Origin: Escherichia phage JS10 | Length of the DNA: 64,000 nt | Sequence record: EU863409 | Strand: one strand, 5' to 3' | In this document: positions 2,765 to 29,836 of the stretch, in pieces | How positions within the stretch are numbered: position 1 is the first letter of the stretch | How the letters are laid out: each line of letters starts with the position of its first letter | Position numbers and translations under genes: made by a program | The notes under the pieces: generated by a model | Seen by the model: the letters and a program-made list of their open reading frames with translations, nothing else | What the model was told of the DNA's origin: nothing | Databases searched by the model: none

Positions 2765-2794
2765 ATCGTATCACACTTTTAATCTGTTGTAAAC
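2765..2794 (-). promoter_or_regulatory. early-promoter-like element
   Basis: minus strand reads GTTTAC, 18-nt spacer, TACGAT. Confidence 0.45.
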
Positions 2795-2796
2795 CC

Positions 2797-2820
2797 CGAA
2801 AAGGGCCTTGCGGCCCTTAA
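2797..2820 (-). terminator. intrinsic terminator-like hairpin
   Basis: GC stem agggcc/ggccct with 4-nt loop, U-run on minus-strand RNA; directly downstream of the 53-aa ORF. Confidence 0.5.
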
Positions 2821-2982
2821 TTAGTTGCTTGAATCGACTCTATAAACTTGACCACGGGTTTGGTAAACTTCGCCGTCCCATGTTTCAACTGTGATAGTAA
2901 CGTACTCGGCAAAAAGAGGACGTGTATCTGTCCAGAGATAACCATATTCACCTGTGACGAGCGTAACCCAGTACTTTCTCAT
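2821..2982 (-). CDS. small hypothetical protein (53 aa)
   Basis: ATG at 2980-2982 preceded by AAGGAG 5-6 nt upstream; stop at 2821-2823; below track cutoff. Confidence 0.45.
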   Translation of the reverse strand: MRKYWVTLVTGEYGYLWTDTRPLFAEYVTITVETWDGEVYQTRGQVYRVDSSN

Positions 2983-3024
2983 AAAGTCTCCTTTTATACG
3001 GTACTCATGTACCGTACGTATTTA

Positions 3025-4842
3025 TTATGACATCCAAGCCTTGCGCAGCTGTGGGTCGTTTCCAAGGAGCATTTCGAACTGGTCTTTCCAATCTTCAGGT
3101 AATTGAACTACATCGAATTTAGGGTCTTGAATCATTCGACGGTATTCAGCCTTCTCAAGAGAACCGAGACCTTTAATATAACGAATAGAATGTTTTGGTA
3201 GAGAGTCCTTAGCTTTGGTATAACTAGGTACATCATAGAACCATTCCTGTTCTTTACCAACCTGAGCAATGATTACAGGAGTCTTACAGAAACGAATTCG
3301 TCCCTGTTCAAACAATTCCGGCCACTGACTAAAGAAAGCTAATAACGAAGGATAAATCGAACCAGTACCATCCACATCGGCGTCAGTCATGATAGCGATA
3401 TTGCGATAGTTGGTTTTATCTGCAGGTTCACCAATAACCAGTCCAGTGATTGCACAGATATCAAACAATTCTTTGTTCTTCATGATATCGGCAGCAGTCA
3501 TACCCCAGGTATTCATAACCTTTCCGCGTAACGGATAACCACCTTGGAGGTCTTTATTACGAACTTCAATGAAAGGACCCATTGCAGAATCACCTTCCGT
3601 AAGGAATAAAGTCGTATCAGCATCTTTGCCATACATATTGGCTTTAATATGCTTATGGACCTTGGCTTTCAAAGCTTTCTTAGCAGCTTTTGTTTCGGCT
3701 GCTTTTTCAGCAGCGAGTTTACGTGCTAAAGCTGCTTCGACAATAGGCATAATCAACCCATCGACCTTAAGAATAGCCGTTGCAATTTTCTTAGCATCAA
3801 TTTGGATATGGTTACGAATCTCACCAAACGGAGAGGTCAATCGCTCTTTAGTCTGTGAATCAAAACGCATATTGCTCATATCACGAATGAACATGACCAT
3901 CGTAAGGCATTCTTTAACACGAGCCTTAGTTACTTCGATTCCTTTATATTTCTTTTTAATACCAGGCAGAAGGTGCTCACAGATATCGTCAAACACACAT
4001 TCAACGTGATGGCCGCCATTCTTAGTATGGATATTGTTTACATACGTCAGTTGACGGAACCCGTCCGGAGAAGGAGTAAATGCCATCGAAACATTATCAG
4101 TTTCTTGGATTACAAAGTCTTCACCAAATTGCTTAGCATACTTTTTAAAGTTGCCATCTACTTTTTTACCATTAAAAGTAAATTGGATATCCGGATAAAT
4201 TACGGCCAGTGTTTGAAGACGGTCTAATGTAATATCCAGATAAATTTGGGACAGACTATTTTCTTCGAAATGGTTAAAGTCTGGGGTGAATATAACCGAA
4301 GTACCCTTACCTTTAGATTTCTTAGTAGACCAACCTTTGTTTTCCATTCCATTGGAACAGTTAACAGTAATCTCATTCTCACCATCAGAGGTGATGCCTG
4401 TGAACAAAACAGAGAAGATATTAGTTAAACTACTACCAACACCGTTCATGCCGCCTGTCTTACGCTCAGCGTCATCTCCAAAGTTACCACCGGCTTTTGG
4501 AATAGTCCATGCAGCTACAGGACCCGGAATTTGTTCACCGTTTTGGTCAGTAACCATTGCTTGAGGAATACCACGGCCATTATCAGAAACTGAAACCTGA
4601 TTATTCTTAATTTGAACATCGATTTTATTTGCGAATTTAAAATTGGTACGAATAGCTTCATCGACAGAGTTATCAATGATTTCGTCAATTAATTTAACCA
4701 GTCCAGGAACATAGTTCACCTGGGTAAAATTACCAAACAGGAATCGACCGTGAGCTTCATTAGCACTTGAGCCAATATACATCCCACTACGTTTTTTGAT
4801 ATGTTCAATGTCGGACAGTACTTTAATTTCATTCTTAATCAT
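3025..4842 (-). CDS. 39: DNA topoisomerase II large (ATPase) subunit, fused 39/60 type
   Basis: 605 aa; GyrB-like ATPase N-terminus; T4 synteny upstream of rIIA. Confidence 0.85.
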   Translation of the reverse strand: MIKNEIKVLSDIEHIKKRSGMYIGSSANEAHGRFLFGNFTQVNYVPGLVKLIDEIIDNSVDEAIRTNFKFANKIDVQIKNNQVSVSDNGRGIPQAMVTDQNGEQIPGPVAAWTIPKAGGNFGDDAERKTGGMNGVGSSLTNIFSVLFTGITSDGENEITVNCSNGMENKGWSTKKSKGKGTSVIFTPDFNHFEENSLSQIYLDITLDRLQTLAVIYPDIQFTFNGKKVDGNFKKYAKQFGEDFVIQETDNVSMAFTPSPDGFRQLTYVNNIHTKNGGHHVECVFDDICEHLLPGIKKKYKGIEVTKARVKECLTMVMFIRDMSNMRFDSQTKERLTSPFGEIRNHIQIDAKKIATAILKVDGLIMPIVEAALARKLAAEKAAETKAAKKALKAKVHKHIKANMYGKDADTTLFLTEGDSAMGPFIEVRNKDLQGGYPLRGKVMNTWGMTAADIMKNKELFDICAITGLVIGEPADKTNYRNIAIMTDADVDGTGSIYPSLLAFFSQWPELFEQGRIRFCKTPVIIAQVGKEQEWFYDVPSYTKAKDSLPKHSIRYIKGLGSLEKAEYRRMIQDPKFDVVQLPEDWKDQFEMLLGNDPQLRKAWMS

Positions 4843-4891
4843 GTTATTTCCTCATGTAGTAGGAGAATATTATCCCATTTCACTTAAAGCA

Positions 4892-4912
4892 TAAAAGGGC
4901 CGAAGCCCTTAA
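4892..4912 (-). terminator. UUCG-loop hairpin
   Basis: agggc-cgaa-gccct with flanking A/T runs. Confidence 0.45.
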
Positions 4913-5169
4913 TCAAATCGAATGGTCGACTTTTTAAAGAATAACCCAGAACAAACTGTTCCTTCAACCCTTTTACCTGTCGGCCCTACAGCAATAAAAC
5001 CTGTACGCTGGAAATCATCTTCAGAACAACCAAATAGGTTGTATCCTGTGATTTGGATTTGTTCGTAGCCATTTGCATCCAATACACGGGTGGCATTATC
5101 AGCATCAGTACAACCAGCCAACGAAACTGCTAGTACAAGAGCCGCAATAGAACGATTAACATATTTCAT
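4909..5169 (-). CDS. putative lipoprotein
   Basis: 86 aa; signal peptide with lipobox LAGC. Confidence 0.55.
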   Translation of the reverse strand: MKYVNRSIAALVLAVSLAGCTDADNATRVLDANGYEQIQITGYNLFGCSEDDFQRTGFIAVGPTGKRVEGTVCSGLFFKKSTIRFD

Positions 5170-5175
5170 AATTTC

Positions 5176-5352
5176 TCACTTAGTTAGCAGGTCATAGAAC
5201 CCGCCGTTAACATGTTTAGGAGCTGAAACTAACCGAACAGCCAGCCGATGGCAATCAGGGCAAACATCATTATCTCTTTCAGAGATTTTCTTGATTTTTT
5301 CGTATTCTTTTGCACAGTCTTCGGATTGGCATTTGTAATCATAAAGTGGCAT
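5176..5352 (-). CDS. FmdB-like zinc-ribbon protein (58 aa)
   Basis: MPLYDYKCQSEDCAKEYE...CPDC; AAGGA RBS; below track cutoff. Confidence 0.5.
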   Translation of the reverse strand: MPLYDYKCQSEDCAKEYEKIKKISERDNDVCPDCHRLAVRLVSAPKHVNGGFYDLLTK

Positions 5353-5353
5353 A

Positions 5354-5725
5354 TTATTCCTTAAAGTGGGCTTTCAACATCTGGTAAACTGTCCAGGCTT
5401 CAGAATTATTAGAGATAGTGATTTTAGTCAAAGGGAAATCACTCGGTTCCGATGGGCCCACGTCTTCGCATTCATCTTCAGTATCGTCATCTTTTTCTTC
5501 TTCAAAGAAACGACGCTCATCTTTCTTTATGAATAGGCTCGTAAATTCACCAGTTGATAATTCCATTTTATACACATCACCATCTTCAATTCTGACTGGT
5601 CTAAATCCCTCGCCATTGATTATAGTATTGGCTATATTATCATTATCTGTACATAACAAACGGAATTTGCTTTCAGCATCATTATCTTTAAAATAATACC
5701 ACTTATCAGTTTCAAATTTGGTCAT
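5354..5725 (-). CDS. hypothetical acidic protein
   Basis: track ORF 5354..5818 trimmed to internal ATG at 5723-5725 (MTKFETDKWYYFK), which avoids a long overlap with the upstream ORF. Confidence 0.45.
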   Translation of the reverse strand: MTKFETDKWYYFKDNDAESKFRLLCTDNDNIANTIINGEGFRPVRIEDGDVYKMELSTGEFTSLFIKKDERRFFEEEKDDDTEDECEDVGPSEPSDFPLTKITISNNSEAWTVYQMLKAHFKE

Positions 5726-8727: not shown

Positions 8728-10015
8728 AAGCCAGCTGTGAAGCTAAATTGGCATCTGCCATGTGCATGCACGGAGTATAGATGAAACTGTTTTGGACAGT
8801 AAGGCCTTGTGATTTATGAACAGTGCTCACCGGAAGAGCTCGAACCTTAGTGAACATTCGCTTAGCTTTCCAGAAATCAGCCCACTTAGGTTTCTTACCA
8901 GTTCCACGCATAGCCTTGTACTCAGTAGCCACCTTAGCCAAGAAATAATGGAACTTCTCAACTGAAGCCTCATCAATAACTTTCAAGTGTTCTACATAGT
9001 ACTCGTCATCCTCATCAACAGATTCAACCTGGAGGTCCCAGTAATTAATCATCTGGCGAGTGCCTACATCCTTGGCAGACAAGAACAATGAGGTGTGGTT
9101 CACATCTAAAATACGAACCATTTGTCCGTTATTAAAAATGGTTTCAGAGAATTTCTTACCGTCGTATTCAAGTTCCTTAATAAAAGGCTCTTGCATCACG
9201 AGGATTTCGCCTTTGATATAAGGCGCATCGGTTTCATAAAGCTTTTTACGAATAATGCTATTCAGTTTTTCAACTGATTTATTTGTATAAGCAAACATCC
9301 TATTCTCAAACAAGGCATCTGCATCTTTTACGATGGAAAAATAATTCATCATAAAATCTTTTAAAGCCGTTTGAGATTTAAAACCATGGACACCGTGACC
9401 TTCGAATATACAATCTCGGAACCATCCACCATTACGGATTTCAGTAGCAACCTCAATGATAGGAGCATTACTACGCATTACTTCAGTAAGGTGTAGCTGT
9501 TTAATTTTAGGATGAGTAAAGAATGGAGACAACTGAGGACTTCCATCACTTCCTGGTTCTACAGGTTGTAACTGTGCTCGGTCGCCAATCCCTAGTACAG
9601 TGCACCACGGCGGAACCGAAGCTTCGATAATCTTAAACAACTTACCGTCAATCATTGAGCCTTCGTCGACCACAAGAACATTACATTTGCTCAAATCAGG
9701 AGCTTCACGCTGTTCAAAAATATCCTGGTCTTCGTATGTAGTCGGGTTAATCTTTAAGATTCGGTGGATTGTCGATGCTTCTTGGCCTGCGAGTTTCGAC
9801 AATACCTTCTTGGCCGCGTGTGTAGGTGCGGTCAAAATAACTCCGAGTTCGCCATTCTTGACTAAGTGGTCAAGGATAAATTTAGTAAGGGTCGTTTTAC
9901 CTGTACCGGCAGGACCATTCAATGTAATCCATTCGCCCTTACGTCGTTTAATAGCTTCAATGATTTCTTTAAAGGCCGTCCGTTGCCCAATATTCAAGTC
10001 TTCAAATGTAATCAT
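8684..10015 (-). CDS. dda: Dda DNA helicase (SF1B)
   Basis: 443 aa; Walker A GPAGTGKTT; N-terminus similar to T4 Dda. Confidence 0.85.
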   Translation of the reverse strand: MITFEDLNIGQRTAFKEIIEAIKRRKGEWITLNGPAGTGKTTLTKFILDHLVKNGELGVILTAPTHAAKKVLSKLAGQEASTIHRILKINPTTYEDQDIFEQREAPDLSKCNVLVVDEGSMIDGKLFKIIEASVPPWCTVLGIGDRAQLQPVEPGSDGSPQLSPFFTHPKIKQLHLTEVMRSNAPIIEVATEIRNGGWFRDCIFEGHGVHGFKSQTALKDFMMNYFSIVKDADALFENRMFAYTNKSVEKLNSIIRKKLYETDAPYIKGEILVMQEPFIKELEYDGKKFSETIFNNGQMVRILDVNHTSLFLSAKDVGTRQMINYWDLQVESVDEDDEYYVEHLKVIDEASVEKFHYFLAKVATEYKAMRGTGKKPKWADFWKAKRMFTKVRALPVSTVHKSQGLTVQNSFIYTPCMHMADANLASQLAYVSITRARTDAYYV

Positions 10016-10311
10016 GCCAATTTTACTCGCTTAACATATAAAGTGTCTAAAATCAATTTTAATTCTCGAGCCCGTTCTTTGGTAGGAAAAACTGTTTTAG
10101 TTTCCCACTTATCAAACCACCATTTTCTTGGCGTGCACACTGTTTCAAGGCGTCCAAGCCGAAGATATCTTTTTGTTGAGATTTCATAAGCCTCTAAAGC
10201 AGTGTCGGCTCCAATCTTTGTCGAATACAAAGTCACTTCACCGGCATCTTCTAACGGAATTTCATACCCGTCTTTGTCCTTGTGAACCAATACGTATGCA
10301 TAGTACATCAC
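10012..10311 (-). CDS. hypothetical protein (dda.1 position)
   Basis: 99-aa ORF. Confidence 0.45.
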   Translation of the reverse strand: MMYYAYVLVHKDKDGYEIPLEDAGEVTLYSTKIGADTALEAYEISTKRYLRLGRLETVCTPRKWWFDKWETKTVFPTKERARELKLILDTLYVKRVKLA

Positions 10312-10312
10312 G

Positions 10313-11062
10313 TTAACCTCTAATCAGTGAAAAAATTGAAGCATTCAGCGGAAGACCTTTTTTCAACTTCAATTTGTCAATAAAAGAAAGGTGTTCTAAA
10401 CGCTCCAGACCTTGAATAATTTTATCATACATATCGTAACGCGTTTCTGCTTCAGACAATTTAAACTTAACACGCCAATCAGGTCCACCAATTAAAGATT
10501 TAAGACCTTTTTCCATAGTACCGATTGAAGCATTAGAACCGTGGATACGGGCCTTAACTGCGATAACAGAAGGAGTCTTATCAGTAGCTCCCGATTTAAT
10601 AAGGTCTTTAAGACGTTTTTCACGTTTTTTAAGACCTCTTTGGGTATCTTTTATATTTTTAACGATTTTACGGATTTTATAATAGTTGTCAGGAGTAACT
10701 TTAAAACTATTAGGCATTTTAGAACTACCTGAAATACGAACTGCTAAACGAGTCTGAGCACGTTTCAGTTCATCAAGGGACAAATCGGCACGTAAGCTGT
10801 TATACTTAACTTTAACTGGGATTACATTACCCTCAATATAGCCGATATCGTTGTTAAAACGTTCAAATGAAATCTTATCATTAACTGAATTTTCATCAAA
10901 GTACTCGCCTGAATAAGCGCACACTTTTTGTTCGAGAAGTCTACGAACATACTTACTAGACAGATTGAAGTCCTTACCACGTTTATAAGCAGAAGCTTTG
11001 GTGTGTTTGCGGCGGTTGTAAACCTTTAACTCAAATTCATCGTTAGTTTTAATAGTAGGCAT
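10313..11062 (-). CDS. Srd-like protein (by position and size)
   Basis: 249 aa, basic; sits in the T4 srd slot between dda and modA; no motif confirmation. Confidence 0.4.
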   Translation of the reverse strand: MPTIKTNDEFELKVYNRRKHTKASAYKRGKDFNLSSKYVRRLLEQKVCAYSGEYFDENSVNDKISFERFNNDIGYIEGNVIPVKVKYNSLRADLSLDELKRAQTRLAVRISGSSKMPNSFKVTPDNYYKIRKIVKNIKDTQRGLKKREKRLKDLIKSGATDKTPSVIAVKARIHGSNASIGTMEKGLKSLIGGPDWRVKFKLSEAETRYDMYDKIIQGLERLEHLSFIDKLKLKKGLPLNASIFSLIRG

Positions 11063-13323: not shown

Positions 13324-13524
13324 TCATGATTTATCCCCATAGATATCACGCATAATCCTAAGGGCCTCGCGTTCTAATTTCTTTTCGCGTTCGTCACGGA
13401 TGCCTTTAAGAATCCATTCCTCGGATTCACGCTTCATTTCTGCATTAGCTTGGTCTAACCAACCGTCATCAAGATAATCACCTGGGCGGTCCAGCCAATC
13501 TTTAAGCCATGATAAAGGTTTCAT
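13324..13524 (-). CDS. hypothetical protein
   Basis: 66-aa ORF. Confidence 0.35.
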
Positions 13525-13841
13525 TAATCACACGAGCTTGACGAAGAGTCACAGCTTCCCGAGTCAGAATAAGACGAATCGCCGGTCCAAGAACTAACGG
13601 CAGCCGCTACTACAATAGGAGTGGTATCAATATGGCTTGTTCGACTAGCTTCTAGATGTTCTTTAAACTTTTTAGAATTCAAAGGAAGGGCCTTGGCATC
13701 CACATTACCCGCCTTTTCAGGTTGACGGGTAACTTCTTCCATCATACCATCGCCTACATAAACATATTCCTTCGGGCCTGAGATAGGAACTACACCTTCA
13801 CCAGGAGTGGTCTTGAAAAAATTTTTAAGCCAACGAATCAT
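13524..13841 (-). CDS. hypothetical protein
   Basis: 105-aa ORF with Ser/Cys-rich C-terminus. Confidence 0.4.
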   Translation of the reverse strand: MIRWLKNFFKTTPGEGVVPISGPKEYVYVGDGMMEEVTRQPEKAGNVDAKALPLNSKKFKEHLEASRTSHIDTTPIVVAAAVSSWTGDSSYSDSGSCDSSSSSCD

Positions 13842-14047
13842 AGGAAACCTCGTTTAAATTCAACCTTATCAATATCATCAGTCTCGTGACGGATTTCGGC
13901 GTTAAATTCGATAGAACCGTCTTCATGCATCATAAATGAATGGACAATAACTTCGGTATACCAAGGAGTATAGAAGTACTTTTTCAATACGTGATTAGCG
14001 ATAATTTCATCCAAAGTTTTATTTGGTTTAATCCAACGATTTAACAT
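13838..14047 (-). CDS. hypothetical protein
   Basis: 69-aa ORF. Confidence 0.4.
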   Translation of the reverse strand: MLNRWIKPNKTLDEIIANHVLKKYFYTPWYTEVIVHSFMMHEDGSIEFNAEIRHETDDIDKVEFKRGFL

Positions 14048-14114
14048 AGTGTTCTCCTCTATAAGATACGTCTATCTTAACATGGTCTACTCGTAAAGTA
14101 AACTACTAAAACGA

Positions 14115-14143
14115 AAAAAGGAACCCGAAGGTTCCTTATAATT
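14115..14143 (-). terminator. UUCG-loop intrinsic terminator after soc
   Basis: aaaaaaggaacccgaaggttcctt: 7-bp stem, cgaa loop, U-run on minus RNA. Confidence 0.6.
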
Positions 14144-14149
14144 AATCTA

Positions 14150-14383
14150 TCATGCCGCTGGAGTTACTTTAAACAAGTCTTCGTTTGCCGTAATCCATGC
14201 CTCCCGGTCATCCTTCTCAAAAACGGTAGAATATGCTGCATCTTTAGAAGGGAAAGTCTGGTAATGAGAGCCCGCAATTTTGTGGACATCTGAATACAGA
14301 GTAAAATCAATGGAAATTTCTTTGCCTTCTACAGTACCACCGGTGACGTCACGGGTAGCTGTTTTGATATTAACATAAGCCAT
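14150..14383 (-). CDS. soc: small outer capsid protein Soc
   Basis: 77 aa; MAYVNIKT...GKEISIDFTLYSDVHKIAGSHYQTFPSKDAAYSTVFEKDD matches T4 Soc closely. Confidence 0.85.
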   Translation of the reverse strand: MAYVNIKTATRDVTGGTVEGKEISIDFTLYSDVHKIAGSHYQTFPSKDAAYSTVFEKDDREAWITANEDLFKVTPAA

Positions 14384-14413
14384 GCAATTCTCCTTTATGA
14401 TTAATTACAAATG

Positions 14414-14421
14414 TATTTATA
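14414..14421 (-). promoter_or_regulatory. late promoter TATAAATA for soc
   Basis: plus-strand tatttata; about 30 nt upstream of the soc ATG, with AAGGAG RBS in between. Confidence 0.6.
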
Positions 14422-14423
14422 CC

Positions 14424-14447
14424 AAAAAAGGAACCCGAAGGTTCCTG
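14424..14447 (-). terminator. UUCG-loop intrinsic terminator after soc paralog
   Basis: same aaaaaaggaacccgaaggttcct hairpin as at 14115. Confidence 0.6.
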
Positions 14448-14451
14448 GTAA

Positions 14452-14682
14452 TTAAAACATATCGTCGACAAACATTTTACTATTTAAAGCAATCCATTCC
14501 TCCCTTTGGTCTTCTTCAAAGACCGGAGTATAAATTGGTTTTTCAGTAATAGAAATTGTATAGTTTGCACCAGCAACACGGTTAACATTGGAATAAAGAT
14601 TAAAATTAACCGAAGCTTTTCTGTTACCAATAGTCATATCGCCGTCAACATGAACGAAGGTCTTGATGTTTACATAAGCCAT
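14452..14682 (-). CDS. Soc paralog (divergent second copy)
   Basis: starts MAYVNIKT at ATG 14680-14682 (track gives 14694); 76 aa, alignable along its whole length with the soc ORF. Confidence 0.7.
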   Translation of the reverse strand: MAYVNIKTFVHVDGDMTIGNRKASVNFNLYSNVNRVAGANYTISITEKPIYTPVFEEDQREEWIALNSKMFVDDMF

Positions 14683-14724: not shown

Positions 14725-15246
14725 TTAATAACCTCGGTCTTGACGAGCAAAGTTCTCGGCATTTTTAAGATAATACAGTTTAAAGATTTCTTCAGCAGTC
14801 AGTCCAAGACCCTGGAACATATTCAGAACAAAGTGCAGAATATCAATCATTTCGAATTTAATTTCGAGCTGGTCTTCAGGAGACAAATCATTAATCAGGG
14901 TTTCGCGACGTTCAGCATGTTGAGCTTTCCAAGGCTTCCATACTGCAGATGCATCTTTTTCACCATTGCTCATACCACCAAGAGAAGTCAGAAGTTCACG
15001 GAATTCGTCATCAATATAATCTTTCTGGTTGCGAAGCCAATCGACAACTTCACCCGCAGTGGCCAAATCATCAGGATGACGATTATATTCAGGCTTATCT
15101 TTAGCTAAACGAACCTGTAATGATTTCTGCATATCAAGCATAACCTGCAGAGGGTCTTTATCTTCGTGAATCAGAGCATTAAAATAAGCTTCTTCAGCTT
15201 TATCGGCACCGGCAATCAGTTGAGAACATTCATTAAAATGAGCCAT
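14725..15246 (-). CDS. 56: dCTP pyrophosphatase (dCTPase)
   Basis: MAHFNECSQL... matches T4 gp56 start; MazG-like; track start 15264 trimmed to ATG at 15244-15246. Confidence 0.85.
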   Translation of the reverse strand: MAHFNECSQLIAGADKAEEAYFNALIHEDKDPLQVMLDMQKSLQVRLAKDKPEYNRHPDDLATAGEVVDWLRNQKDYIDDEFRELLTSLGGMSNGEKDASAVWKPWKAQHAERRETLINDLSPEDQLEIKFEMIDILHFVLNMFQGLGLTAEEIFKLYYLKNAENFARQDRGY

Positions 15247-20186: not shown

Positions 20187-20500
20187 CTCTTAGATTTAAT
20201 TTTATCCAGTTCTTCTTGTATTTGCATTGTAACACATTTTTCTACATGAAGCGCTAGCTCTTCTTTTCGGTCTTCGGAAGGCGTTCCGAAATCAACCGAC
20301 ACTTTTCCATCTTTCTCAATAACAATATTCATCACATAAACGATGTGAGCAGTGCCATCGGGTAATGTAAGCATAATTTCCTGCTTAACAGAACCCATTG
20401 ACTTACGGATTATATCTAACGATTTCTCATAATAACGAGGGTCACTAGGACCCTCTTCAGTATCTTTAACAAAATTATCTAAATCAGATAAATCAGTCAT
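20171..20500 (-). CDS. 40: gp40-like protein (by position)
   Basis: 109-aa ORF between uvsX and 41. Confidence 0.5.
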   Translation of the reverse strand: MTDLSDLDNFVKDTEEGPSDPRYYEKSLDIIRKSMGSVKQEIMLTLPDGTAHIVYVMNIVIEKDGKVSVDFGTPSEDRKEELALHVEKCVTMQIQEELDKIKSKRWWKW

Positions 20501-21665
20501 CTAAATCCATCTCTTCTAAATCGTTTTCGATATCAGCTGCGCTTTGAGTGTCGCCACTCAATTTAACTGCAACGTTCTTAGAGACACGAGAGTTAATAAG
20601 GTCGTTCACCGCATCATCGACTTCTTTAATAGAATTAATTGCACCGAGCTTATACTTATTCTCGATTGCTTCACGGAATGGAGCATGTTTAAACAGCGGT
20701 CCCCAGAACTCGACACAATCGGTAGCTTTAGCACGCCATGATTTTTCTTCTTGAACCATTTCACCCGTGGTTTCGTCAAGGAATGCACGATTATACCAAC
20801 CAGCTTTAGGTTTCACGACAAAGCCAATATCAGTAGCCATTTCGAGCAGACCACTAAATGGGTCGATACCACCTTCAAAGTTCACAGTAATTGGGAACGT
20901 TGATTTCTCTTTAACAGTACGAGATTTTTCGGCCTTCAGGGTGAAGTCATAACCAGTGAGCTCGGTACCATCTTTAACCTGACGTTTAGAGATAAAGAAT
21001 ACGGTAGAAGCAGAGTACAGAATACCAGTACCACCACCCATAATCTCTTTAGGATACATTCCACCAATTTCCATAGCCGTATGGTTAATTGCTACACAAG
21101 GAATATCCTTGATAGTCAGATAAGGTGTTACGATACGGAACAGAGATTTCAGAGACTTAGCACGAGTCATATCACCTACAACTTTCTCGTTCAACGCATC
21201 TTCGGTTTCTTTCTTAGAAGCAGTGTTACCGATGGAGTCGATAAAGATAATAACCTTTTCGCCACGAGTAATTTCTTCTAATTGGTTGGTCATGTCAACC
21301 TTCAGTTGTTCGACTGACTGGATTGGTGTATGAACCACACGTTCCAGGTCAACACCCATTGAACGGAAATAAGATTCTGAAGCACCGAACTCAGAGTCAT
21401 AGAACAAGCAAATTGCGTCTGGATATTTCTTCATATATGCCGCAACCATAGTTAATCCAAACAACGTTTTAAAGTGTTTAGACGGTGCAGCAAAGATTGT
21501 CAAACCTGATTGTAAGCCTGCATTCAACGCACCGCCCAATGCAATATTAAGCATAGGAATACGAGTAGGAACTTCGTCACGACCATTAAACAATTTAGAT
21601 TTGGTCAGGTCGGCAGTCATTTTAGAAGTAGAAGCTTTAATCAAACGGGATTTTAAATCAGACAT
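20493..21665 (-). CDS. uvsX: UvsX recombinase (RecA-like)
   Basis: 390 aa; RecA-fold ATPase; T4 UvsX is about 391 aa. Confidence 0.85.
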   Translation of the reverse strand: MSDLKSRLIKASTSKMTADLTKSKLFNGRDEVPTRIPMLNIALGGALNAGLQSGLTIFAAPSKHFKTLFGLTMVAAYMKKYPDAICLFYDSEFGASESYFRSMGVDLERVVHTPIQSVEQLKVDMTNQLEEITRGEKVIIFIDSIGNTASKKETEDALNEKVVGDMTRAKSLKSLFRIVTPYLTIKDIPCVAINHTAMEIGGMYPKEIMGGGTGILYSASTVFFISKRQVKDGTELTGYDFTLKAEKSRTVKEKSTFPITVNFEGGIDPFSGLLEMATDIGFVVKPKAGWYNRAFLDETTGEMVQEEKSWRAKATDCVEFWGPLFKHAPFREAIENKYKLGAINSIKEVDDAVNDLINSRVSKNVAVKLSGDTQSAADIENDLEEMDLDD

Positions 21666-21699: not shown

Positions 21700-21745
21700 A
21701 CGTTTTAAGATAGGGTAATTATATCACTTCACAGTTACAGCATTA
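21700..21745 (-). promoter_or_regulatory. possible middle (MotA-type) promoter of uvsX
   Basis: minus strand AATGCTGTAA box 12 nt upstream of a perfect TATAAT. Confidence 0.3.
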
Positions 21746-21867
21746 CTTAATTCCTCGGTTGATAGCCTTATCGACTATCTTCCGAACTTCTCGTTTCTCG
21801 AGCCACCCTAATAATAGCAAGGCTCCGAAAGAGAATAATAACAAACCTATAAAAAGCAATAGAGGAC

Positions 21868-22761
21868 CTAGCATACTACGTCCTCATAACGTGGCATTTC
21901 GTATTCAGAATGAATATTGGCACCGAAATAAATGAATTCAGCCAGACCAGGATGGAATACTAAACCTGGGTTCTCATGATAAATGATATGTGGTCTTGAT
22001 TTCAGAATTTGATAATATTCAACCTTACTCGGTTTGAATTTAATAATCTCTACATCAGGACGATAGTCTTCGCGCTTAAATGAATCATTCGGGTCGGTGA
22101 TATAAAGACGAGCACCTTCAGCGGCAGCTTGGTCTACAACTCTTTCGAATTGATAGCACTTATCCGAAATACGGAATGGATGGAAAATACCATCAATTTT
22201 AATAGGCGCTAGACCTTCAGAGTAACGCTCAATTACTGCAGGATTAATTACCTTTTGGTCTACAAAAATCTTATCAGAGGATGCACCTCGTGACACCAGG
22301 ACGTCTTTCTGGCATTGATTCAGGACTGTAGTATAAAGTGAACGTTCAACCGAAGCCACATCAATATCAATGAACTCGTCGATATAATAACGAGGAACTT
22401 CAGGGTCCATTGTGATATTAAAGTTGAATTGTACAGTGTGAGCACCATCATAACCGGTGATATCGGTTACCAGTCCTGAGCAATCGTAGTATTCGATTAG
22501 TGAATCGACTACAAACTCATTTTCAGACCAGAAATGTTTACGGGTTTCATAAGCATTTTCTTTATACCAAAGTGGTACGAAATTCAGTTCTGGGAATAAT
22601 TCAATGCATTCTTTGATATCGCTCGAATTTCTAGGATAAGCCAGATAATCACCTGGACGAGCACGATTTAAATGGAGTTGAAAATTACCGTCCTTAAGGA
22701 CGGCATATTCACCTGTTTCGTAACTACGCATACTGAAAATAGGAACGATAAACAAACTCAT
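21868..22761 (-). CDS. hypothetical protein at the T4 beta-glucosyltransferase locus; candidate DNA-sugar transferase
   Basis: 297 aa; sits between uvsX and gene 42 where T4 has bgt, but does not resemble T4 bgt. Confidence 0.5.
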   Translation of the reverse strand: MSLFIVPIFSMRSYETGEYAVLKDGNFQLHLNRARPGDYLAYPRNSSDIKECIELFPELNFVPLWYKENAYETRKHFWSENEFVVDSLIEYYDCSGLVTDITGYDGAHTVQFNFNITMDPEVPRYYIDEFIDIDVASVERSLYTTVLNQCQKDVLVSRGASSDKIFVDQKVINPAVIERYSEGLAPIKIDGIFHPFRISDKCYQFERVVDQAAAEGARLYITDPNDSFKREDYRPDVEIIKFKPSKVEYYQILKSRPHIIYHENPGLVFHPGLAEFIYFGANIHSEYEMPRYEDVVC

Positions 22762-23456
22762 TTCAGGAAACCTCGGACGTAGTCAAAATCACGTTCAAAC
22801 ACGTGTGCACTTACCATGGTGTGAGAATATGTACCTAAACCGACACCACACTGTTCAGCAATAAATGCCATCAGTTTACCCTGCAGATAGAAATCCAGCT
22901 GCATAACAACAGCACAGTTTTGTGAACGCATATGGGTGTGTGCATACAAACGTCCGTCACGAATATAATACGTTACCGAATCGGTGCACGGATATTCTAA
23001 GGATTCGTCAGAATCAAGGAGGGCTTGGTCTTGTTCTTGGAGAATCTGGAACACAACTCTTCGCGAGTTAGCCTTTTCTTTAAGCTCTTTAAGTAGGGCT
23101 GGGAGTTGGGCCACAATTCGAGGTCCATAGAAAGTGTTGAAGTTTGCAGGCAATACGTCACTTTTCGGCTTATCAATGAACTTAGCAACATTAGGATATT
23201 CCTTAAATGCTTCGGCGGCGTCAGTACCACCAGAAATCATAAATTTCCAAAAGGATTCGGCATATTCATAACTAATACGATTGATACGTGGGTCGGTGAA
23301 TTTATAGGTGCTTGCATCCAGTACTTCTACAGAAGCAGAACCAATTTCATAACAACGTCCGATACGAGAATCAACTGCAAACTGTGGAGCTTCCAGGATT
23401 TCTTCGTTCATTTGTTTAAATGCATTTTCAAAACTAACAGCGGTAATGTGTTTCAT
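22758..23456 (-). CDS. 42: dCMP hydroxymethylase (thymidylate-synthase fold)
   Basis: 232 aa; NSRRVVFQ...THMRSQNCAVVMQLDFY...HVFERDF align with T4 gp42 blocks. Confidence 0.8.
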   Translation of the reverse strand: MKHITAVSFENAFKQMNEEILEAPQFAVDSRIGRCYEIGSASVEVLDASTYKFTDPRINRISYEYAESFWKFMISGGTDAAEAFKEYPNVAKFIDKPKSDVLPANFNTFYGPRIVAQLPALLKELKEKANSRRVVFQILQEQDQALLDSDESLEYPCTDSVTYYIRDGRLYAHTHMRSQNCAVVMQLDFYLQGKLMAFIAEQCGVGLGTYSHTMVSAHVFERDFDYVRGFLK

Positions 23457-23989
23457 TTATTCACCTTATTTTCAATATATTCGTTCAGACGTTTTAATTC
23501 TACCATATCAACATTAAGCAAATTATTATGGCCGTCATGATTTAAGATTTTAAACACGTTTTCAAAACATGTTTCGTATTGCCGGATAGTTAGGTTGAAC
23601 TCATCTTTGGTTAATTTAATAAGGTCGTCTTCGAAGTCTTCGTCTAATGGATTACGAGTTAAAATAACCTCGATAACGTTAAATTCGGATTTAAACCCTT
23701 TCCAATCTTCCAGTTCTACATAAGGGTCCATTTCACCACGAAGGAATCCTGAGTAAACAATATTACTTGGATAACCACGGTCAAGGATATAAACGAAATT
23801 AGGGTCTAAAAACTTATACAGAGTTTCAACTAAAGCCTTATCGTTATCGGTTCCTAATGAAATACACTTGCCATTAATCTTTTTAGGAAAATCAATAAGG
23901 CGGTATTTCTTATTGGATAACAGATTTTTAATTAAAGTGGACTTCCCGGAATTATCCGGGCCGTCTATAACAATGATTTTTGGATTCAT
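23453..23989 (-). CDS. P-loop kinase, thymidylate-kinase-like
   Basis: 178 aa; Walker A IVIDGPDNSGKST typical of Tmk/dNK-type kinases. Confidence 0.55.
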   Translation of the reverse strand: MNPKIIVIDGPDNSGKSTLIKNLLSNKKYRLIDFPKKINGKCISLGTDNDKALVETLYKFLDPNFVYILDRGYPSNIVYSGFLRGEMDPYVELEDWKGFKSEFNVIEVILTRNPLDEDFEDDLIKLTKDEFNLTIRQYETCFENVFKILNHDGHNNLLNVDMVELKRLNEYIENKVNK

Positions 23990-24384
23990 GGATGATAGGC
24001 CTTATAACTATCAAGAGTTCCTTCACGAACCATTTCTTTAAAGTGGTCAGGACGGATTGCTCGGTCATCGATGATAAAAGTATAACTCGGCTTGTGTGTA
24101 AGCAAATTGTGATATTTCAATCCAATTTTTTCAAGGTTCTTAACCAATGCAGGAACTACTTCAACCAAGATTCGACCTGGGCCACATGAAGTCATGCCAC
24201 GGGCGGTGAACAATGTAATCTCGTACCCTTCATCATAAAGCTTATTAATCATGGACACCATTTCGGTGTCCGGTTTAAAGTTCTCATAATCACGGTCATG
24301 GTTCCAAATCGTGATTGTGTTATCGATATCAAAACATAAGTGTGGCTTATTTTCTACTCGATGCGACATTAAATTTTCTTCCAT
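23986..24384 (-). CDS. HAD-superfamily phosphatase
   Basis: 132 aa; motif I CFDIDNTIT (DxDxT). Confidence 0.6.
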   Translation of the reverse strand: MEENLMSHRVENKPHLCFDIDNTITIWNHDRDYENFKPDTEMVSMINKLYDEGYEITLFTARGMTSCGPGRILVEVVPALVKNLEKIGLKYHNLLTHKPSYTFIIDDRAIRPDHFKEMVREGTLDSYKAYHP

Positions 24385-26042
24385 TGTTTGTGGAGTTCAG
24401 TAGAACCTGTAGGTTTATATTTTACACCAGTTTCCTGGTCAAGCAAAACCCACTTATCAGGACAACGAGTAATAATTTGGGCCGTAATAGGGTCACGAAC
24501 TTCATCGACAAATTCACCTGTAATAAGCTTACGCTTACGAGGATGCCGCTTCAGCAGCACACTCAGTTGGTACAAACCGTTATAATAAGCACCCAGAGCT
24601 TTCAGAGGGTTATTCTTAAAGTAACCTGCCAGAGCCATCCAAATAACAGCAATCCAGAGCTTGTGCTTAAATGTGCACATAGGGATATCGTCTAAAGGCA
24701 TAACCTTTTCGATATCAACGAATACACGAGTTCCGTTACGAGTTAATCCACCCCATAGAGGGTCTGAGTTAAATTTGTCATAGCCATCGATAGAATAAAG
24801 CACCTTAGCTTCATCATAAATCGCAGGGCCTTTAGAACTATTACCGAAATAACCGCGTGGGTCGATGATTTTAATATCACCTTCGTCCGACAGCATAATA
24901 TTACTGTAGTGCGGGTCACCATGAATAAGTTGGTACGGTTCTTTATGTTCAGACAGAATTTCTAGTGCATGGCGGAGAAGTTTTTCAGGGTCGCCTACTT
25001 TGAAATCGTTAACATGGGTAATGCCTTGTGGAGCAAAGCCTTCAATCAATCCGGCAATAGAAGCATTACGAATAAGGACCTTGTCCAATACTTCTTTCTT
25101 AACATCAGAATACCATTGCTCATCGGACGGGTTATCGATAGTTCCACCGAATGAACGTAATGCACTAATGACCTTATAAACCATGAGGACTTTAGTTTCT
25201 TTGGACATAAACCGGTAGGCATCTGCCATGGTCCGACCAAAGATACGTTCCATTTTAATGAATTCGCCTGGAGAAAAGTCTACAATGCTAGGAACGAATT
25301 CAGAATCAATAGAATTATACCAATTGATTTCTTTAGATTGAATTTCTTTACCTAAATCGTTAGTTGGTACTTTAATAGCCAGATTCTCGGTGAATTCTAA
25401 TTTATTAAATTCACGGTTAATTTCAGATTCTTCATGGGCCTTAGCCAGTTTCAATTTGTCACCGACATCAACTACAAAGTCCAGTTTACGTTCAGTCAAA
25501 TAGACCATTGAATCCAGGTTATCAGCAAGGTCTTCACCGTAATTAGAACGGTCGAAACCTGTCCAATTAGCCACCTGATACAAACCAACTACACCGCCAC
25601 CGGTACCAATTTCACGTAAGTACGGTTCTTCAAATGTAAAACGACAATCGGTTCCATAAGTATAGCAGTAGTCGTTACCCCACTCAACTTTATGACCTTC
25701 AGGAATGATGTCACACCAGTTAAACAAGACATTATGACCAATGATATCTTCGGCAATGCAATCGATAGCATGAGCTGAACCATTAGCAACATCAACGTTA
25801 CGAATAGTGAATTTAGGCTTATCACCAGTAATCATGTTAATGGATTTAATATAGCCTTTAACGAGGTCGTTAAATTTGCTGTGAATAACCAGAATAATTT
25901 CATCTGATTGGTTACTATACAAATCATACAAATGCTTTAATACTGTATGTTGTTTGTAGTTAACCAATACCTTCGGGATTTCGTTAGTAATTGGGTACAA
26001 ACGTGAGCCAAGACCTGCGCCTAAAATAACAACCTTTTTCAT
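24369..26042 (-). CDS. bifunctional sugar-1-phosphate nucleotidyltransferase / APH-fold sugar kinase
   Basis: N-terminus VVILGAGLGSRL (NTP-transferase G-x-G-x-R); C-terminus HGDPHYSNIML...IIDPRGYFG (APH/choline-kinase catalytic loop); start trimmed to ATG 26040-26042 with GAGGAA RBS. Confidence 0.65.
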   Translation of the reverse strand: MKKVVILGAGLGSRLYPITNEIPKVLVNYKQHTVLKHLYDLYSNQSDEIILVIHSKFNDLVKGYIKSINMITGDKPKFTIRNVDVANGSAHAIDCIAEDIIGHNVLFNWCDIIPEGHKVEWGNDYCYTYGTDCRFTFEEPYLREIGTGGGVVGLYQVANWTGFDRSNYGEDLADNLDSMVYLTERKLDFVVDVGDKLKLAKAHEESEINREFNKLEFTENLAIKVPTNDLGKEIQSKEINWYNSIDSEFVPSIVDFSPGEFIKMERIFGRTMADAYRFMSKETKVLMVYKVISALRSFGGTIDNPSDEQWYSDVKKEVLDKVLIRNASIAGLIEGFAPQGITHVNDFKVGDPEKLLRHALEILSEHKEPYQLIHGDPHYSNIMLSDEGDIKIIDPRGYFGNSSKGPAIYDEAKVLYSIDGYDKFNSDPLWGGLTRNGTRVFVDIEKVMPLDDIPMCTFKHKLWIAVIWMALAGYFKNNPLKALGAYYNGLYQLSVLLKRHPRKRKLITGEFVDEVRDPITAQIITRCPDKWVLLDQETGVKYKPTGSTELHKQWKKI

Positions 26043-26102
26043 TATCTGTTCCTCAAGTGAATGTAGGTACATTATACACTATTTTTAATAAATTTCTATT
26101 GC

Positions 26103-26603
26103 TTAAATCTTATCTTTACCGTATTCCATGCACTGTTCTACTGCAGCAGGCACTTTGGACTTAAGCTTGTTGATTTGTTTCTTATAATCACGAGCCTTAT
26201 CGAAGCTCTCGGTTTCAAGCATTTCGTAATAACGGGCCTCGTGGACGGAAATCTGTAGATTGATATGGTTTACACACATAGAATACAGTTTCTGCTTTTT
26301 GTACAAATCATCTTGGCGCTTCATTTCTGCCTGGTGTTTGGCTAGTACCGCTTCACGCTTAGACTCTTGTTCACGTTGGAATTCGATTTCCCTTTGAGCA
26401 TATTTTGCACAGTTATTACCGCATTGATTATTAGCTCGGGTATACACAAGTCCAGAACCAGCACGGAATTTCATTTCGCCGTCGAATTGTTTCTGTTCAG
26501 CTGCGATACGAGCTTTACCAACTTCATCAGCAGAAACTGCATCACCGTATTGGACTGCGCAACCTGATAGGAGCATACTCATTGCGATAATTAACTTTTT
26601 CAT
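26103..26603 (-). CDS. putative lipoprotein
   Basis: 166 aa; signal peptide with lipobox LSGC. Confidence 0.55.
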   Translation of the reverse strand: MKKLIIAMSMLLSGCAVQYGDAVSADEVGKARIAAEQKQFDGEMKFRAGSGLVYTRANNQCGNNCAKYAQREIEFQREQESKREAVLAKHQAEMKRQDDLYKKQKLYSMCVNHINLQISVHEARYYEMLETESFDKARDYKKQINKLKSKVPAAVEQCMEYGKDKI

Positions 26604-27043: not shown

Positions 27044-29755
27044 TTAAAAGTCGAACATGTCAAATAATGTTGCTTTTTTCTCGTAGTCGATTTTAGCAGA
27101 CTCAGTAAAACCAGTCAGTGGTTTGATAAAGGTCTTTTGGAACAGTACGTTGTAGTCCATCCAACGGAGGACTTGGTCACGAATCTGAATCGGAAGTTCA
27201 ATACCTGACGGCCATGCCATACAAGCTTCACCGAACGGGTTGCCTTCTTTAAGTGGCAGTACATATACCTTTTCACCATCAACGATACGAGGCATAGTCA
27301 AATCACCAGCAGAAGCACGCATGTAAGCTAAGCAACCTTTGATGTGGTACGGGCATTTAGAACCAGGGAAACCGCCTTCATTATATTTCTCAATGTTGTT
27401 AGCACTGGATACTGCAGCAATGCTTACATAGTCTAGTTCGTTAAATTCCTTATTAAACTGTTTGAAATATTCTTGCAAAGAAGCCTCGCCTTCTTGAAGC
27501 ATACGACGGATACATTCTTTCAGTGCTTTCTGAACCGCTTTAGGCGTACTTGATTTCTGGGTTTCGAGACCCATGATTTTCAAGTGTGGTTCGGCATAAC
27601 GAGTACCTTCCATGTCCCAAACGTTCAGTGCGTAACGTTTCTTGCCTGTCCAGAATCCACCAAGACCTTTAGAACCAAGTGGAGGACCAGCGATAGCTTC
27701 TCGGTCCATGAACATCAAGTGCTGTTTATTGTTCATGTATTCACACATCTCACGGAAGCCTGCATCAATAGCTGGTTCCATACGTTCACGTGCAAATTTA
27801 TCTAAGAAGTCAACCCAGTGGTTAGTATCACGGAATTTGTCTTCGCCTACTTTATTGATGATTGCATCAGCCTTAACATAAATGGAGTCGGTATCACCAT
27901 AGAGCACGAACTTCTGGTTTTCAGTCTTGCACACGCCATTCAGATATTCGTTAACCTTACGTTCAATCCATTGGAGGGCCATTTGACCAAACAATGTGAT
28001 TGCAGTTGCGTTCCTGAGGTCATAGTAACGGAACCATACGTTACCAAGTGCACCATAAAGGGAGTTGATAAGCAACTTACGGTTAATCTGAGCAGTCATA
28101 CCTGCGACTTCAGTGCGTTCGGCTTTGAACAACATTTCTTTTAAAGAAGATGCTGACAATTTTTTAATCTGAGCTTTGATTTCGTCAGAGAAGTCGAAAC
28201 GATAATCGATATCCAGTGGACTATCAACAGACAGATTAGGATTTTCTAATGCTTCTTTAATTAACTCACCATTACGTTGAGCTGCAAGCATATAACCTTT
28301 ATGTTCTTTACGCTGTAAGAACACCTTCGTGATTTCTGTAGGAATCACACCATCACGGTCTTTATAGTACATCATGCCGTTAGGAGAGCAACTGTAGGTG
28401 TCGCTAGGACGCGGAGCAGTTCCGGCAATATATTCATGTATCGGTGCGTTGGCGAATGTCCCTGCGATGGTCTCTGGGCTTATATTCACTTGACGAATGA
28501 TACTCGGGTACAGAGATGTAAGGTCGAAACTCATTACATATTTGTACGCGTTAGGAATAGGTTCCTTAACGAAAGCACCCGGATAAGGTTGAACCGCATG
28601 CGATTTGGCCTGAGGAATAACTTTACCCTGTTCTTTAAGGCTATTAAAGATAATAGCGTCCCAAGTCTTAATTGGACTGAACACCGACTGAATCTGCATC
28701 TTGGCATAGTAACCCATGTCCAGACTAAGAAGAATGAACTGGCGTTTCATATCAATCTGCACAACACGATATACGTCGATAATGTTATAGGAAATATATC
28801 GTTGGTGGTTCGTCTCACGTAACTTGGAGATAGGACCATCATATTTCAACTTACCTACTTTCAATTCATATTCAGAAACATAATCCAGAGAATAAGAAGG
28901 CTGGTTGGTAAAGCTGAATTTTTTATAAAGGTCGATATAATCCAGAACAGAAATGCCGAACAGTGTAATAATTTCACGAACACCGTACATATTCTCGATA
29001 ACTTTAACACGAGTCTTACGATGTGGGCTTAATCGCTTAGCAGTGTTCTCACCAAACAGATTTTTCAGACGGTTATAAACGTATGGCACGTCAAATGATT
29101 CAACGTTCCATCCAGTCAAAATCACAGGAGTTTTCTGTTGCCAGAAATTCAGATACTCAAGCATCATTTCTTCTTCAGAATTAAACGGAAGATAAACGAT
29201 TTTGTCAATGATTTCTTGTGGAACTTCGTCACCACCTTCGTCTTGGAGTTTCTCAGCGATTTTAATCGACCACTCTTCGACCGTACCATAAGGTGAAACT
29301 AAAAGGTCAAATACATAGAATTTATCATCAATCGAGTCGTAGTGAGTAATGGCATCGATAGGATGTTTAGCCTGGGCAGGTTCAGGGAATCCATCAGGAG
29401 ATGTTACCTCGATGTCGAAGTTAGCAATACGAATCTTGGAAGAATCATACTTGATTTCTTTACGATAGGTATCAGACAAATAGGCTAATTTATAGTCGTC
29501 CATACCAAGGGCTTCGAGACCCATATCGTCCATGCGCTTCATCCACTGAGAAGCATCGCGCATTGAATCGAATTCTTTCTTAACACAGCCCTTACCGTAG
29601 ATGTCAATATATTTTACGGCTTGCTCTGGGTTGGCATGCATAAACATTGTAGGCTTGTAAGGAACTTCACGACTACGTTCTTTACCATTTTTATCGATGT
29701 AACGTTCGAGAATATTATCACCGATTTGTTCGACTGTCAAATAGAATTCTTGCAT
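27044..29755 (-). CDS. 43: DNA polymerase (family B)
   Basis: starts MQEFYLTVEQIGDN as T4 gp43; YGDTDS motif; track start 29815 trimmed to ATG 29753-29755. Confidence 0.9.
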   Translation of the reverse strand: MQEFYLTVEQIGDNILERYIDKNGKERSREVPYKPTMFMHANPEQAVKYIDIYGKGCVKKEFDSMRDASQWMKRMDDMGLEALGMDDYKLAYLSDTYRKEIKYDSSKIRIANFDIEVTSPDGFPEPAQAKHPIDAITHYDSIDDKFYVFDLLVSPYGTVEEWSIKIAEKLQDEGGDEVPQEIIDKIVYLPFNSEEEMMLEYLNFWQQKTPVILTGWNVESFDVPYVYNRLKNLFGENTAKRLSPHRKTRVKVIENMYGVREIITLFGISVLDYIDLYKKFSFTNQPSYSLDYVSEYELKVGKLKYDGPISKLRETNHQRYISYNIIDVYRVVQIDMKRQFILLSLDMGYYAKMQIQSVFSPIKTWDAIIFNSLKEQGKVIPQAKSHAVQPYPGAFVKEPIPNAYKYVMSFDLTSLYPSIIRQVNISPETIAGTFANAPIHEYIAGTAPRPSDTYSCSPNGMMYYKDRDGVIPTEITKVFLQRKEHKGYMLAAQRNGELIKEALENPNLSVDSPLDIDYRFDFSDEIKAQIKKLSASSLKEMLFKAERTEVAGMTAQINRKLLINSLYGALGNVWFRYYDLRNATAITLFGQMALQWIERKVNEYLNGVCKTENQKFVLYGDTDSIYVKADAIINKVGEDKFRDTNHWVDFLDKFARERMEPAIDAGFREMCEYMNNKQHLMFMDREAIAGPPLGSKGLGGFWTGKKRYALNVWDMEGTRYAEPHLKIMGLETQKSSTPKAVQKALKECIRRMLQEGEASLQEYFKQFNKEFNELDYVSIAAVSSANNIEKYNEGGFPGSKCPYHIKGCLAYMRASAGDLTMPRIVDGEKVYVLPLKEGNPFGEACMAWPSGIELPIQIRDQVLRWMDYNVLFQKTFIKPLTGFTESAKIDYEKKATLFDMFDF

Positions 29756-29812
29756 TTCATTTCCTTTATAGACGAGTGATTGTCTTTTGTTTGTTGATGA
29801 ATAATTATACTC

Positions 29813-29836
29813 CAAAAAGGGACCGAAGTCCCTTTG
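29813..29836 (-). terminator. UUCG-loop hairpin upstream of gene 43 leader
   Basis: aaaaagggaccgaagtccctttgc. Confidence 0.5.

Follow-up and report, generated by a model that had tools for sequence, protein, structure and literature searches.

A probable arabinosyl-5-hydroxycytosine module of Dhakavirus type in Escherichia phage JS10

The DNA of phage RB69 carries beta-D-Araf-(1-3)-alpha-D-Araf-5-hydroxy-dC (Araf, arabinofuranose; dC, deoxycytidine), shown by nuclear magnetic resonance to be ether-linked, and not the arabinosyl-hydroxymethylcytosine (ara-hmC) that was first reported. The gene module behind this base is already known from a first description in 2018 and from work of 2025-2026 that resolved how it functions. 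RB69 and JS98 were noted to have gene 42 and gene 56 and no glucosyltransferases (Petrov et al. 2010). A description of the module, located between uvsX and the polymerase gene, followed, with gp43 of the Dhakavirus IME08 recognized as a homologue of its fused sugar-activating enzyme (Thomas et al. 2018), and the genes were catalogued across the Tevenvirinae in a 2021 survey. The base, pathway and structures were established most recently (Lee et al. 2026; He et al. 2026 and Mahler 2025, the latter two as described in papers that cite them). Dhakaviruses are among the named carriers of the syntenic cluster, listed by synteny only (Lee et al. 2026). Here we analyse the corresponding five-gene block of Escherichia phage JS10 (sequence record EU863409) in a stretch of 64,000 nucleotides (nt), referred to as the window, for which a preliminary description made from the sequence alone had proposed a nucleotide-sugar and DNA-hypermodification module.

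From its homology to the RB69 cluster, we consider the JS10 block very probably to be the Dhakavirus version of the arabinosyl-5-hydroxycytosine (ara-5hoC) system. The list of open reading frames (ORFs) places five minus-strand genes between uvsX and the imm and DNA polymerase genes, transcribed in the order fusion enzyme (557 amino acids, aa), 132-aa, 178-aa, 232-aa and 297-aa protein (Table 1). Consecutive genes overlap by 16, 4, 4 and 4 nt, with ATGA at three of the junctions, and this tight packing indicates one translationally coupled operon. The block (4.4 kb) shares 98.6% nucleotide identity with Escherichia phage JS98, a Dhakavirus, and about 50 phage genomes carry it at 90% identity or higher, while homologues of the fusion protein are found in 366 phage records. 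Judged by the overlaps and this conservation, the five ORFs are real genes and not chance ORFs. The JS98 annotation already marks them as similar to RB69 ORFs. All of the ORFs in the preliminary description are present on this strand, and the four motifs that it read from them, given below with each protein, were confirmed.

The chemistry of the modified base is indicated by the 232-aa protein, which Pfam alone labels merely "thymidylate synthase" (TS) and which the preliminary description took for the hydroxymethylase of gene 42, and hence for a source of hydroxymethylcytosine (hmC). We compared the protein to PDB sequences and found matches to 9IQU, 9IQC and 9IR2 at E 2e-125, but to T4 gp42 (1B5D) at only E 1.5e-4. 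The three entries share a deposition series with 9IQZ, which is listed as "phage HY126 glycosyltransferase". Identity of the JS10 protein to RB69 gp48 is 80%, compared with 25% over 159 residues for T4 gp42. An alignment to E. coli ThyA that included T4 gp42 and RB69 gp48 reveals that the catalytic Cys146 is kept and that three positions are exchanged, L143E, N177D (dCMP specificity) and D169N. The region around ThyA position 169 reads RSQNCAVVMQLD in the 232-aa protein, RSCDVFLGLPFN in ThyA and RSNDVVFGFRND in T4 gp42, which keeps the Asp. D169N is reported to be diagnostic for 5-hydroxy-dCMP synthases and correctly predicted the activity of nine more homologues, while RB69 gp48 and DLP3 gp80 both produce 5-hydroxy-dCMP with oxygen from O2 and with bound flavin (Lee et al. 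2026). The JS10 "gene 42" product is therefore predicted to be a cytosine C5 hydroxylase and not a dCMP hydroxymethylase, so that hmC has to be replaced in the earlier account. Given D169N and the 80% identity to RB69 gp48, the sugar would be attached directly to the C5 oxygen.

Two further proteins are predicted to prepare the sugar donor. The 132-aa protein matched PDB entries 9IQW (E 5e-54) and 1XPJ (E 4.5e-12), contains the DxDxT motif of HAD phosphatases as DIDNT, and is the counterpart of RB69 gp51 (Table 1); it also has a sub-threshold match to TIGR01689, the EcbF/BcbF capsule biosynthesis phosphatase family. A second gp51-like match, at 14932-15153 (E 0.006), lies within or beside the dCTPase gene and was dismissed as chance. 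The fusion protein matches the Pfam families NTP_transferase (residues 13-110) and APH (residues 356-427), both over the gathering score, carries the motifs GLGSRL and HGDPHYSN, and is homologous to RB69 gp53 and gp52 over its full length. The best PDB match of the nucleotidyltransferase domain is LicC (1jyk), with MurU models matching too, and the PDB search found no close solved homologue of the 557-aa protein. Kinases and nucleotidyltransferases such as LicA/LicC (choline) and AmgK/MurU (MurNAc) work as pairs. These pairs also join an APH-fold kinase to a small nucleotidyltransferase, whereas both are fused in the JS10 enzyme, and a phosphatase step would be interposed here, since the sugar that enters the pathway already bears a phosphate at C5.

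The presence of a kinase, a HAD phosphatase and a nucleotidyltransferase, together with the gene-for-gene homology to RB69, bears out the proposed nucleotide-sugar module. The order of steps given in the preliminary description, phosphatase and then anomeric kinase, does not hold. For phage HY126 (He et al. 2026, as summarized by Lee et al. 2026), AfhE makes the 1,5-bisphosphate from arabinofuranose-5-phosphate, AfhF removes the 5-phosphate, and AfhE forms UDP-arabinose, although Table 1 of Lee et al. 2026 still words the pathway as phosphatase-first.

The 297-aa ORF occupies the slot of the T4 bgt gene and had been described as unrelated to it. This holds for sequence: the ORF has no Pfam or NCBIfam match, and a profile of 48 sequences found only a chance match among PDB sequences. 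The ORF is nevertheless accounted for: the AlphaFold model calculated from the 48-sequence alignment (pLDDT 95.2, pTM 0.90) has a GT-B glycosyltransferase fold, and it is by this predicted fold, which alone is informative, that we assign the ORF as a GT-B glycosyltransferase. The gene adjoins the TS homologue, as expected of an ara-5hoC cluster, and the transferase beside the TS homologue has been proposed as the first transferase (Lee et al. 2026). By analogy, the protein is presumed to be the DNA arabinosyltransferase that adds the first sugar. The 178-aa protein, an orthologue of RB69 gp45, has a Tmk fold and a GPDNSGKS motif; it most likely phosphorylates the modified pyrimidine mononucleotide.

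Gene content, orthology, folds and the active-site signature are direct results of the analysis. Taken together, these assignments suggest a pathway in which we infer the activities, the identity and number of the sugars, and the host origin of arabinose-5-phosphate from homologues and the literature. The gp56 dCTPase would supply dCMP and exclude dCTP from the phage DNA; its RB69 counterpart, gp28, is listed in the pathway of Lee et al. 2026. The 232-aa enzyme would hydroxylate dCMP at C5 with flavin and O2, and the resulting 5-hydroxy-dCMP would be phosphorylated by one or more kinases and then enter DNA instead of dC. The donor would start from host D-arabinose-5-phosphate, produced by KdsD and GutQ, the E. 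coli arabinose-5-phosphate isomerases (Thomas et al. 2018). The kinase domain at the C terminus of the 557-aa enzyme would phosphorylate this sugar at C1 to the 1,5-bisphosphate, the 132-aa HAD phosphatase would take off the 5-phosphate to leave arabinofuranose-1-phosphate, and the N-terminal nucleotidyltransferase domain would couple the latter with UTP to give UDP-arabinofuranose. Finally, the 297-aa GT-B protein would move the arabinofuranose onto the 5-hydroxyl, yielding an O-glycoside directly on the ring. Arabinose is the likeliest sugar and our best guess, as it was in the preliminary description, because of the gene-for-gene homology to the RB69 cluster, and mono-arabinosylation is predicted because only one transferase is detectable.

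Table 1. Features of the five-gene block and its surroundings in the JS10 window, with RB69 counterparts. RB69 gp47/gp46 and gp53/gp52 are each one gene, divided by sequencing error (Thomas et al. 2018; Lee et al. 2026).
Feature	Position	Strand	Predicted role or remark	RB69 counterpart	Identity to RB69
297-aa GT-B glycosyltransferase, gp46:47 orthologue	21868..22761	(-)	presumed first DNA (5-hydroxycytosine) arabinosyltransferase	gp47 + gp46	66-70%
232-aa thymidylate-synthase-superfamily enzyme	22758..23456	(-)	predicted flavin-dependent 5-hydroxy-dCMP synthase	gp48	80%
178-aa Tmk-like P-loop kinase, gp45 orthologue	23453..23989	(-)	substrate probably a modified pyrimidine nucleotide	gp45	38%
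132-aa HAD phosphatase (AfhF type)	23986..24384	(-)	predicted arabinose-1,5-bisphosphate 5-phosphatase	gp51	62%
557-aa bifunctional nucleotidyltransferase + APH-fold kinase (AfhE type)	24369..26042	(-)	predicted	gp53 + gp52	41-44%
Promoter-like site TAGAAA, 16 nt, TATAAT	26071..26098	(-)	10/12 matches; directly upstream of operon; weak		
166-aa lipoprotein-like ORF	26103-26603	(-)	between fusion gene and imm		
45-aa ORF				gp54	53%
gp56 dCTPase/dUTPase	14728..15246	(-)	accessory to pathway; 100% identical to JS98 gp56		
uvsX	20493-21665		flank of cluster		
DNA polymerase gene (43)	27044-29815		other flank of cluster		

We compared the locus to the described systems. The Mosigvirus cluster (RB69 gp45-gp55, Afh of HY126, and Aat of Bas46/Bas47) shares with the window the orthologues of the GT-B protein, the D169N synthase, the Tmk-like kinase, the HAD phosphatase and the fusion enzyme. 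In RB69 the cluster lies at the same site between uvsX and gene 43 and on the same strand, but its kinase adjoins uvsX, whereas the JS10 kinase sits between the HAD and TS genes, and imm lies inside the JS10 interval, unlike in the RB69-type cluster. The window also lacks gp55, gp50, gp49 and gp3 of RB69. The genes have diverged from RB69 to very different degrees, identity falling from the TS homologue through the transferase, HAD phosphatase and fusion enzyme down to the kinase (Table 1). This pattern points either to a shuffling of modules or to a more rapid evolution of the sugar-activating enzyme. Bas46 and Bas47 were considered as Dhakaviruses that would provide direct chemistry and were left unused, their genus being unconfirmed; the literature describes them only as doubly arabinosylated T-even relatives. 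We take the two phages to be Mosigviruses.

The closest relative of the module is found in the Marfavirus Klebsiella phage vB_Kpn_F48, at 70-87% protein identity. F48 has the same gene order as the window (fusion, HAD, Tmk-like, TS-like, GT) and likewise lacks the isomerase at this locus, but its kinase and TS genes are separated by a U32-like gene and a small ORF, where the window has an ATGA overlap. Shewanella phage Thanatos (TH1_060-065) resembles the window in having a single glycosyltransferase of this family along with the TS homologue, kinase, HAD and fusion proteins, and differs in the presence of a U32-like gene and in a longer HAD protein.

The T4 system (gp42, gp56, gp1, alpha-GT and beta-GT) follows a shared logic, in which dCMP is modified by a TS-family enzyme, dC is kept out by a dCTPase and the sugar comes from a GT-B enzyme, and the T4 beta-GT slot beside the TS homologue is the site of the JS10 GT-B gene. 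However, T4 hydroxymethylates (Asp at 169) whereas the JS10 enzyme is predicted to hydroxylate (Asn at 169), T4 uses host UDP-glucose whereas the JS10 phage must make its own donor, and the JS10 transferase has no sequence similarity to T4 agt or bgt. The T4 uvsX-43 interval contains bgt, gene 42, imm and imm.1, as the preliminary description listed, but also the homing endonuclease gene segA, which it left out.

Components of the related systems were sought by tblastn at E<=1 in the window and the whole JS98 genome. No match was obtained for RB69 gp55 (a SIS-domain arabinose-5-phosphate isomerase; DLP3 gp83), gp50 (Pfam Peptidase_U32), gp49 or gp3 (the second transferase; in DLP3, gp76/77 are the enzymes for the second and third arabinose). 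T4 bgt gave no match and the best for T4 agt reached only E 0.099, so that neither has a homologue there, in keeping with the non-glucose modification put forward in the preliminary description. The a-gt slot of JS98 is empty, and the gap between rIIA.1 and gene 39, the slot of gp3 in RB69, contains small ORFs only. Because the isomerase, the U32-like gene and the second transferase were not found, we predict from the sequences a single sugar, derived from host arabinose-5-phosphate. The isomerase is also absent from the cluster locus in F48 and Thanatos, and thus appears to be optional. As a separate observation, the gap at about 2440-3025 (minus strand) holds two ORFs of about 52 and 105 aa, parted by a GC-rich hairpin and then a T run (GGGCCGCAAGGCCCTTTT), and is left unannotated in JS98.

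Several points weigh against arabinosylated 5-hydroxycytosine as the product of this locus. Our literature search found no published chemical or nucleoside analysis of any Dhakavirus DNA, and no accessible study shows transferase activity for this glycosyltransferase family. The DLP3 transferases assayed singly, including the gp79 counterpart of the JS10 protein, were inactive on 5hoC-DNA (Lee et al. 2026), and the Thanatos homologue TH1_063 was reported to be a UDP-xylose pyrophosphorylase that left plasmid DNA unmodified (PMC12838424). A second transferase was sought by Pfam in nine other large ORFs of the window and none was found, in a search that is insensitive since the known transferase itself has no Pfam match. 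The fusion enzyme is only 41-44% identical to RB69 gp53 and gp52, and the enzymes from Dhakavirus, Marfavirus and Proteus phages form a clade of their own, with no more than 46% identity to any other lineage. Lastly, the Thanatos sugar, O-linked directly to C5, was reported as a deoxypentose ([M+H]+ 360.10, with fragments of 128.045 and 244.09; PMC12838424). On the Thanatos data themselves, we note that m/z 360.10 is the value expected either of 5-hydroxy-dC carrying a deoxypentose or of dC carrying a pentose, and not that of pentosyl-5-hydroxy-dC, calculated at 376, and that a UDP-xylose pyrophosphorylase activity is unexpected for a GT-B fold.

The last of these points, together with the divergence of the fusion enzyme and the isomerase missing from both the window and JS98, would also fit the same architecture attaching another sugar to 5-hydroxycytosine, such as one from ribose-5-phosphate, xylose or a deoxypentose. 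We regard this as unlikely. The isomerase is equally lacking at the F48 and Thanatos loci, and it would be dispensable because E. coli constantly makes arabinose-5-phosphate; the DLP3 and RB69 enzymes are similarly diverged and yet both phages carry D-arabinofuranose; and Thanatos is termed mono-arabinosylated by Lee et al. 2026. Since the reports on Thanatos conflict, arabinose is a probable rather than a certain assignment in the single-transferase lineages. Far less probable is a route in which a T4-type gp42 makes hmC and then ara-hmC, with the donor formed by a phosphatase, an anomeric kinase acting on free arabinose and a nucleotidyltransferase. The name ara-hmC in the original RB69 report, the bare Pfam label of the TS homologue and the phosphatase-first wording of Lee et al. 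2026 would all agree with such a route, but position 169 is Asn in the JS10 protein (D169N) and Asp in T4 gp42, the 80% identity is to an enzyme that makes 5-hydroxy-dC with oxygen from O2, the RB69 base itself was re-determined as ether-linked 5-hydroxy-dC, and in HY126, according to the summary of that work in Lee et al. 2026, the kinase acts first and on arabinose-5-phosphate. It is hardly credible, finally, that the nucleotide sugar is meant for a non-DNA target such as the host envelope or capsule. Database names such as "capsule biosynthesis protein" and "phosphoheptose isomerase" and the sub-threshold EcbF/BcbF match of the HAD protein point that way, whereas the genes alternate with those of the TS homologue and the Tmk-like kinase, to which they are coupled in translation, the same cluster goes with arabinosylated DNA in RB69 and DLP3, and no other cytosine-protecting transferase was found in the window or JS98.

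A different question concerns the acceptor of the first sugar, which published data leave as either the mononucleotide or DNA (Lee et al. 2026). In place of transfer to DNA, the 297-aa glycosyltransferase could sugar free 5-hydroxy-dCMP before replication, the Tmk-like kinase would phosphorylate the product, and the polymerase would incorporate the glycosylated dNTP. We hold this order of events to be improbable. It would explain why the triad of kinase, transferase and TS homologue is conserved side by side in the window, RB69, DLP3, F48 and Thanatos, and why two laboratories saw no DNA transfer by this glycosyltransferase family. The triad is kept even in Rhizobium phage RL38J1, which attaches hexoses (Lee et al. 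2026). With a single transferase and neither an isomerase nor a U32-like gene, the pared-down Dhakavirus version offers a convenient minimal system for studying what the first transferase acts on and what the Tmk-like kinase does.

The Peptidase_U32-family gene of the RB69-type cluster lies at 4493-5662 in RB69 (gp50), 9675-10835 in F48 (gp95) and 13428-14564 in Thanatos (TH1_065), in the numbering of each compared stretch, and is absent at window 23453-23456. No gene of the module is better conserved: identity among RB69, F48 and Thanatos is 79-86%, compared with 72-78% for the TS homologue. It occurs in 222 phage records, mostly of Enterobacterales; Acinetobacter falls outside the ten leading genera, yet 57 Acinetobacter phages have the fusion enzyme. 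U32 proteins include the O2-independent hydroxylases RlhA, which forms 5-hydroxycytidine in rRNA, TrhP and UbiU/V. The U32-like protein could thus provide an anaerobic path to 5-hydroxycytosine, as a backup to the O2-dependent enzyme, and if this were true the present Dhakavirus would need O2 for its modification. The main text of Lee et al. 2026 makes no mention of a link between U32 proteins and anaerobic hydroxylation.

Because the pathway is published, the scientific addition made by this locus is small, and its relevance lies largely in description. JS98-type phages are used in phage-therapy cocktails and should be described as carrying glycosylated 5-hydroxycytosine rather than hmC. The DNA chemistry determines which restriction, CRISPR and glycosylase defences a phage escapes or triggers. 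The labels "thymidylate synthase", "phosphoheptose isomerase" and "capsule biosynthesis protein" are misleading in this context.

We also inspected the signals and start sites around the block. A scan of the region for promoters and terminators returned 19 promoter-like sites against 18.7 expected from shuffled sequence, which is no excess, and the operon call is therefore based on the gene overlaps and not on signals. Read from its first ATG, the fusion ORF would encode 567 aa (to 26072), but this ATG sits within the TATAAT box of the weak promoter-like site. The ATG at 26042 is preceded by a GAGG Shine-Dalgarno sequence and agrees with the JS98 annotation and the PHROG alignment, giving the 557 aa that the preliminary description had stated.

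Upstream of the five genes lie a 166-aa ORF, a 45-aa ORF and imm, identified by Pfam Imm_superinfect at E 5e-18, followed by the DNA polymerase gene. The 166-aa ORF carries a lipoprotein signal (MKKLIIAMSMLLSGC) and occupies roughly the place of the isomerase gene in RB69 and of imm.1 in T4. Its match is to PHROG 1754, a family of unknown function; Pfam gave nothing significant, and the ORF is dissimilar to T4 imm.1. Since it neighbours imm, it may encode a protein of superinfection exclusion or of the envelope. At the other end of the block, a strongly hydrophobic 43-aa ORF (MLGPLLLFIGLLLFSFGALLLLGW...; 21743-21874, minus strand) begins 7 nt ahead of the transferase stop codon. JS98 carries no annotation for this ORF and PHROG gave no match; it may be a small membrane peptide or spurious. 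Elsewhere in the window, two conserved ORFs of the T4-type nrdC region, both on the minus strand and unrelated to the module, gave weak matches: a 331-aa ORF (47482-48477) to AAA/STAND-NTPase-like and HTH domains, and a 346-aa ORF (48882-49922) to RlaP, a polymerase-beta-type nucleotidyltransferase.

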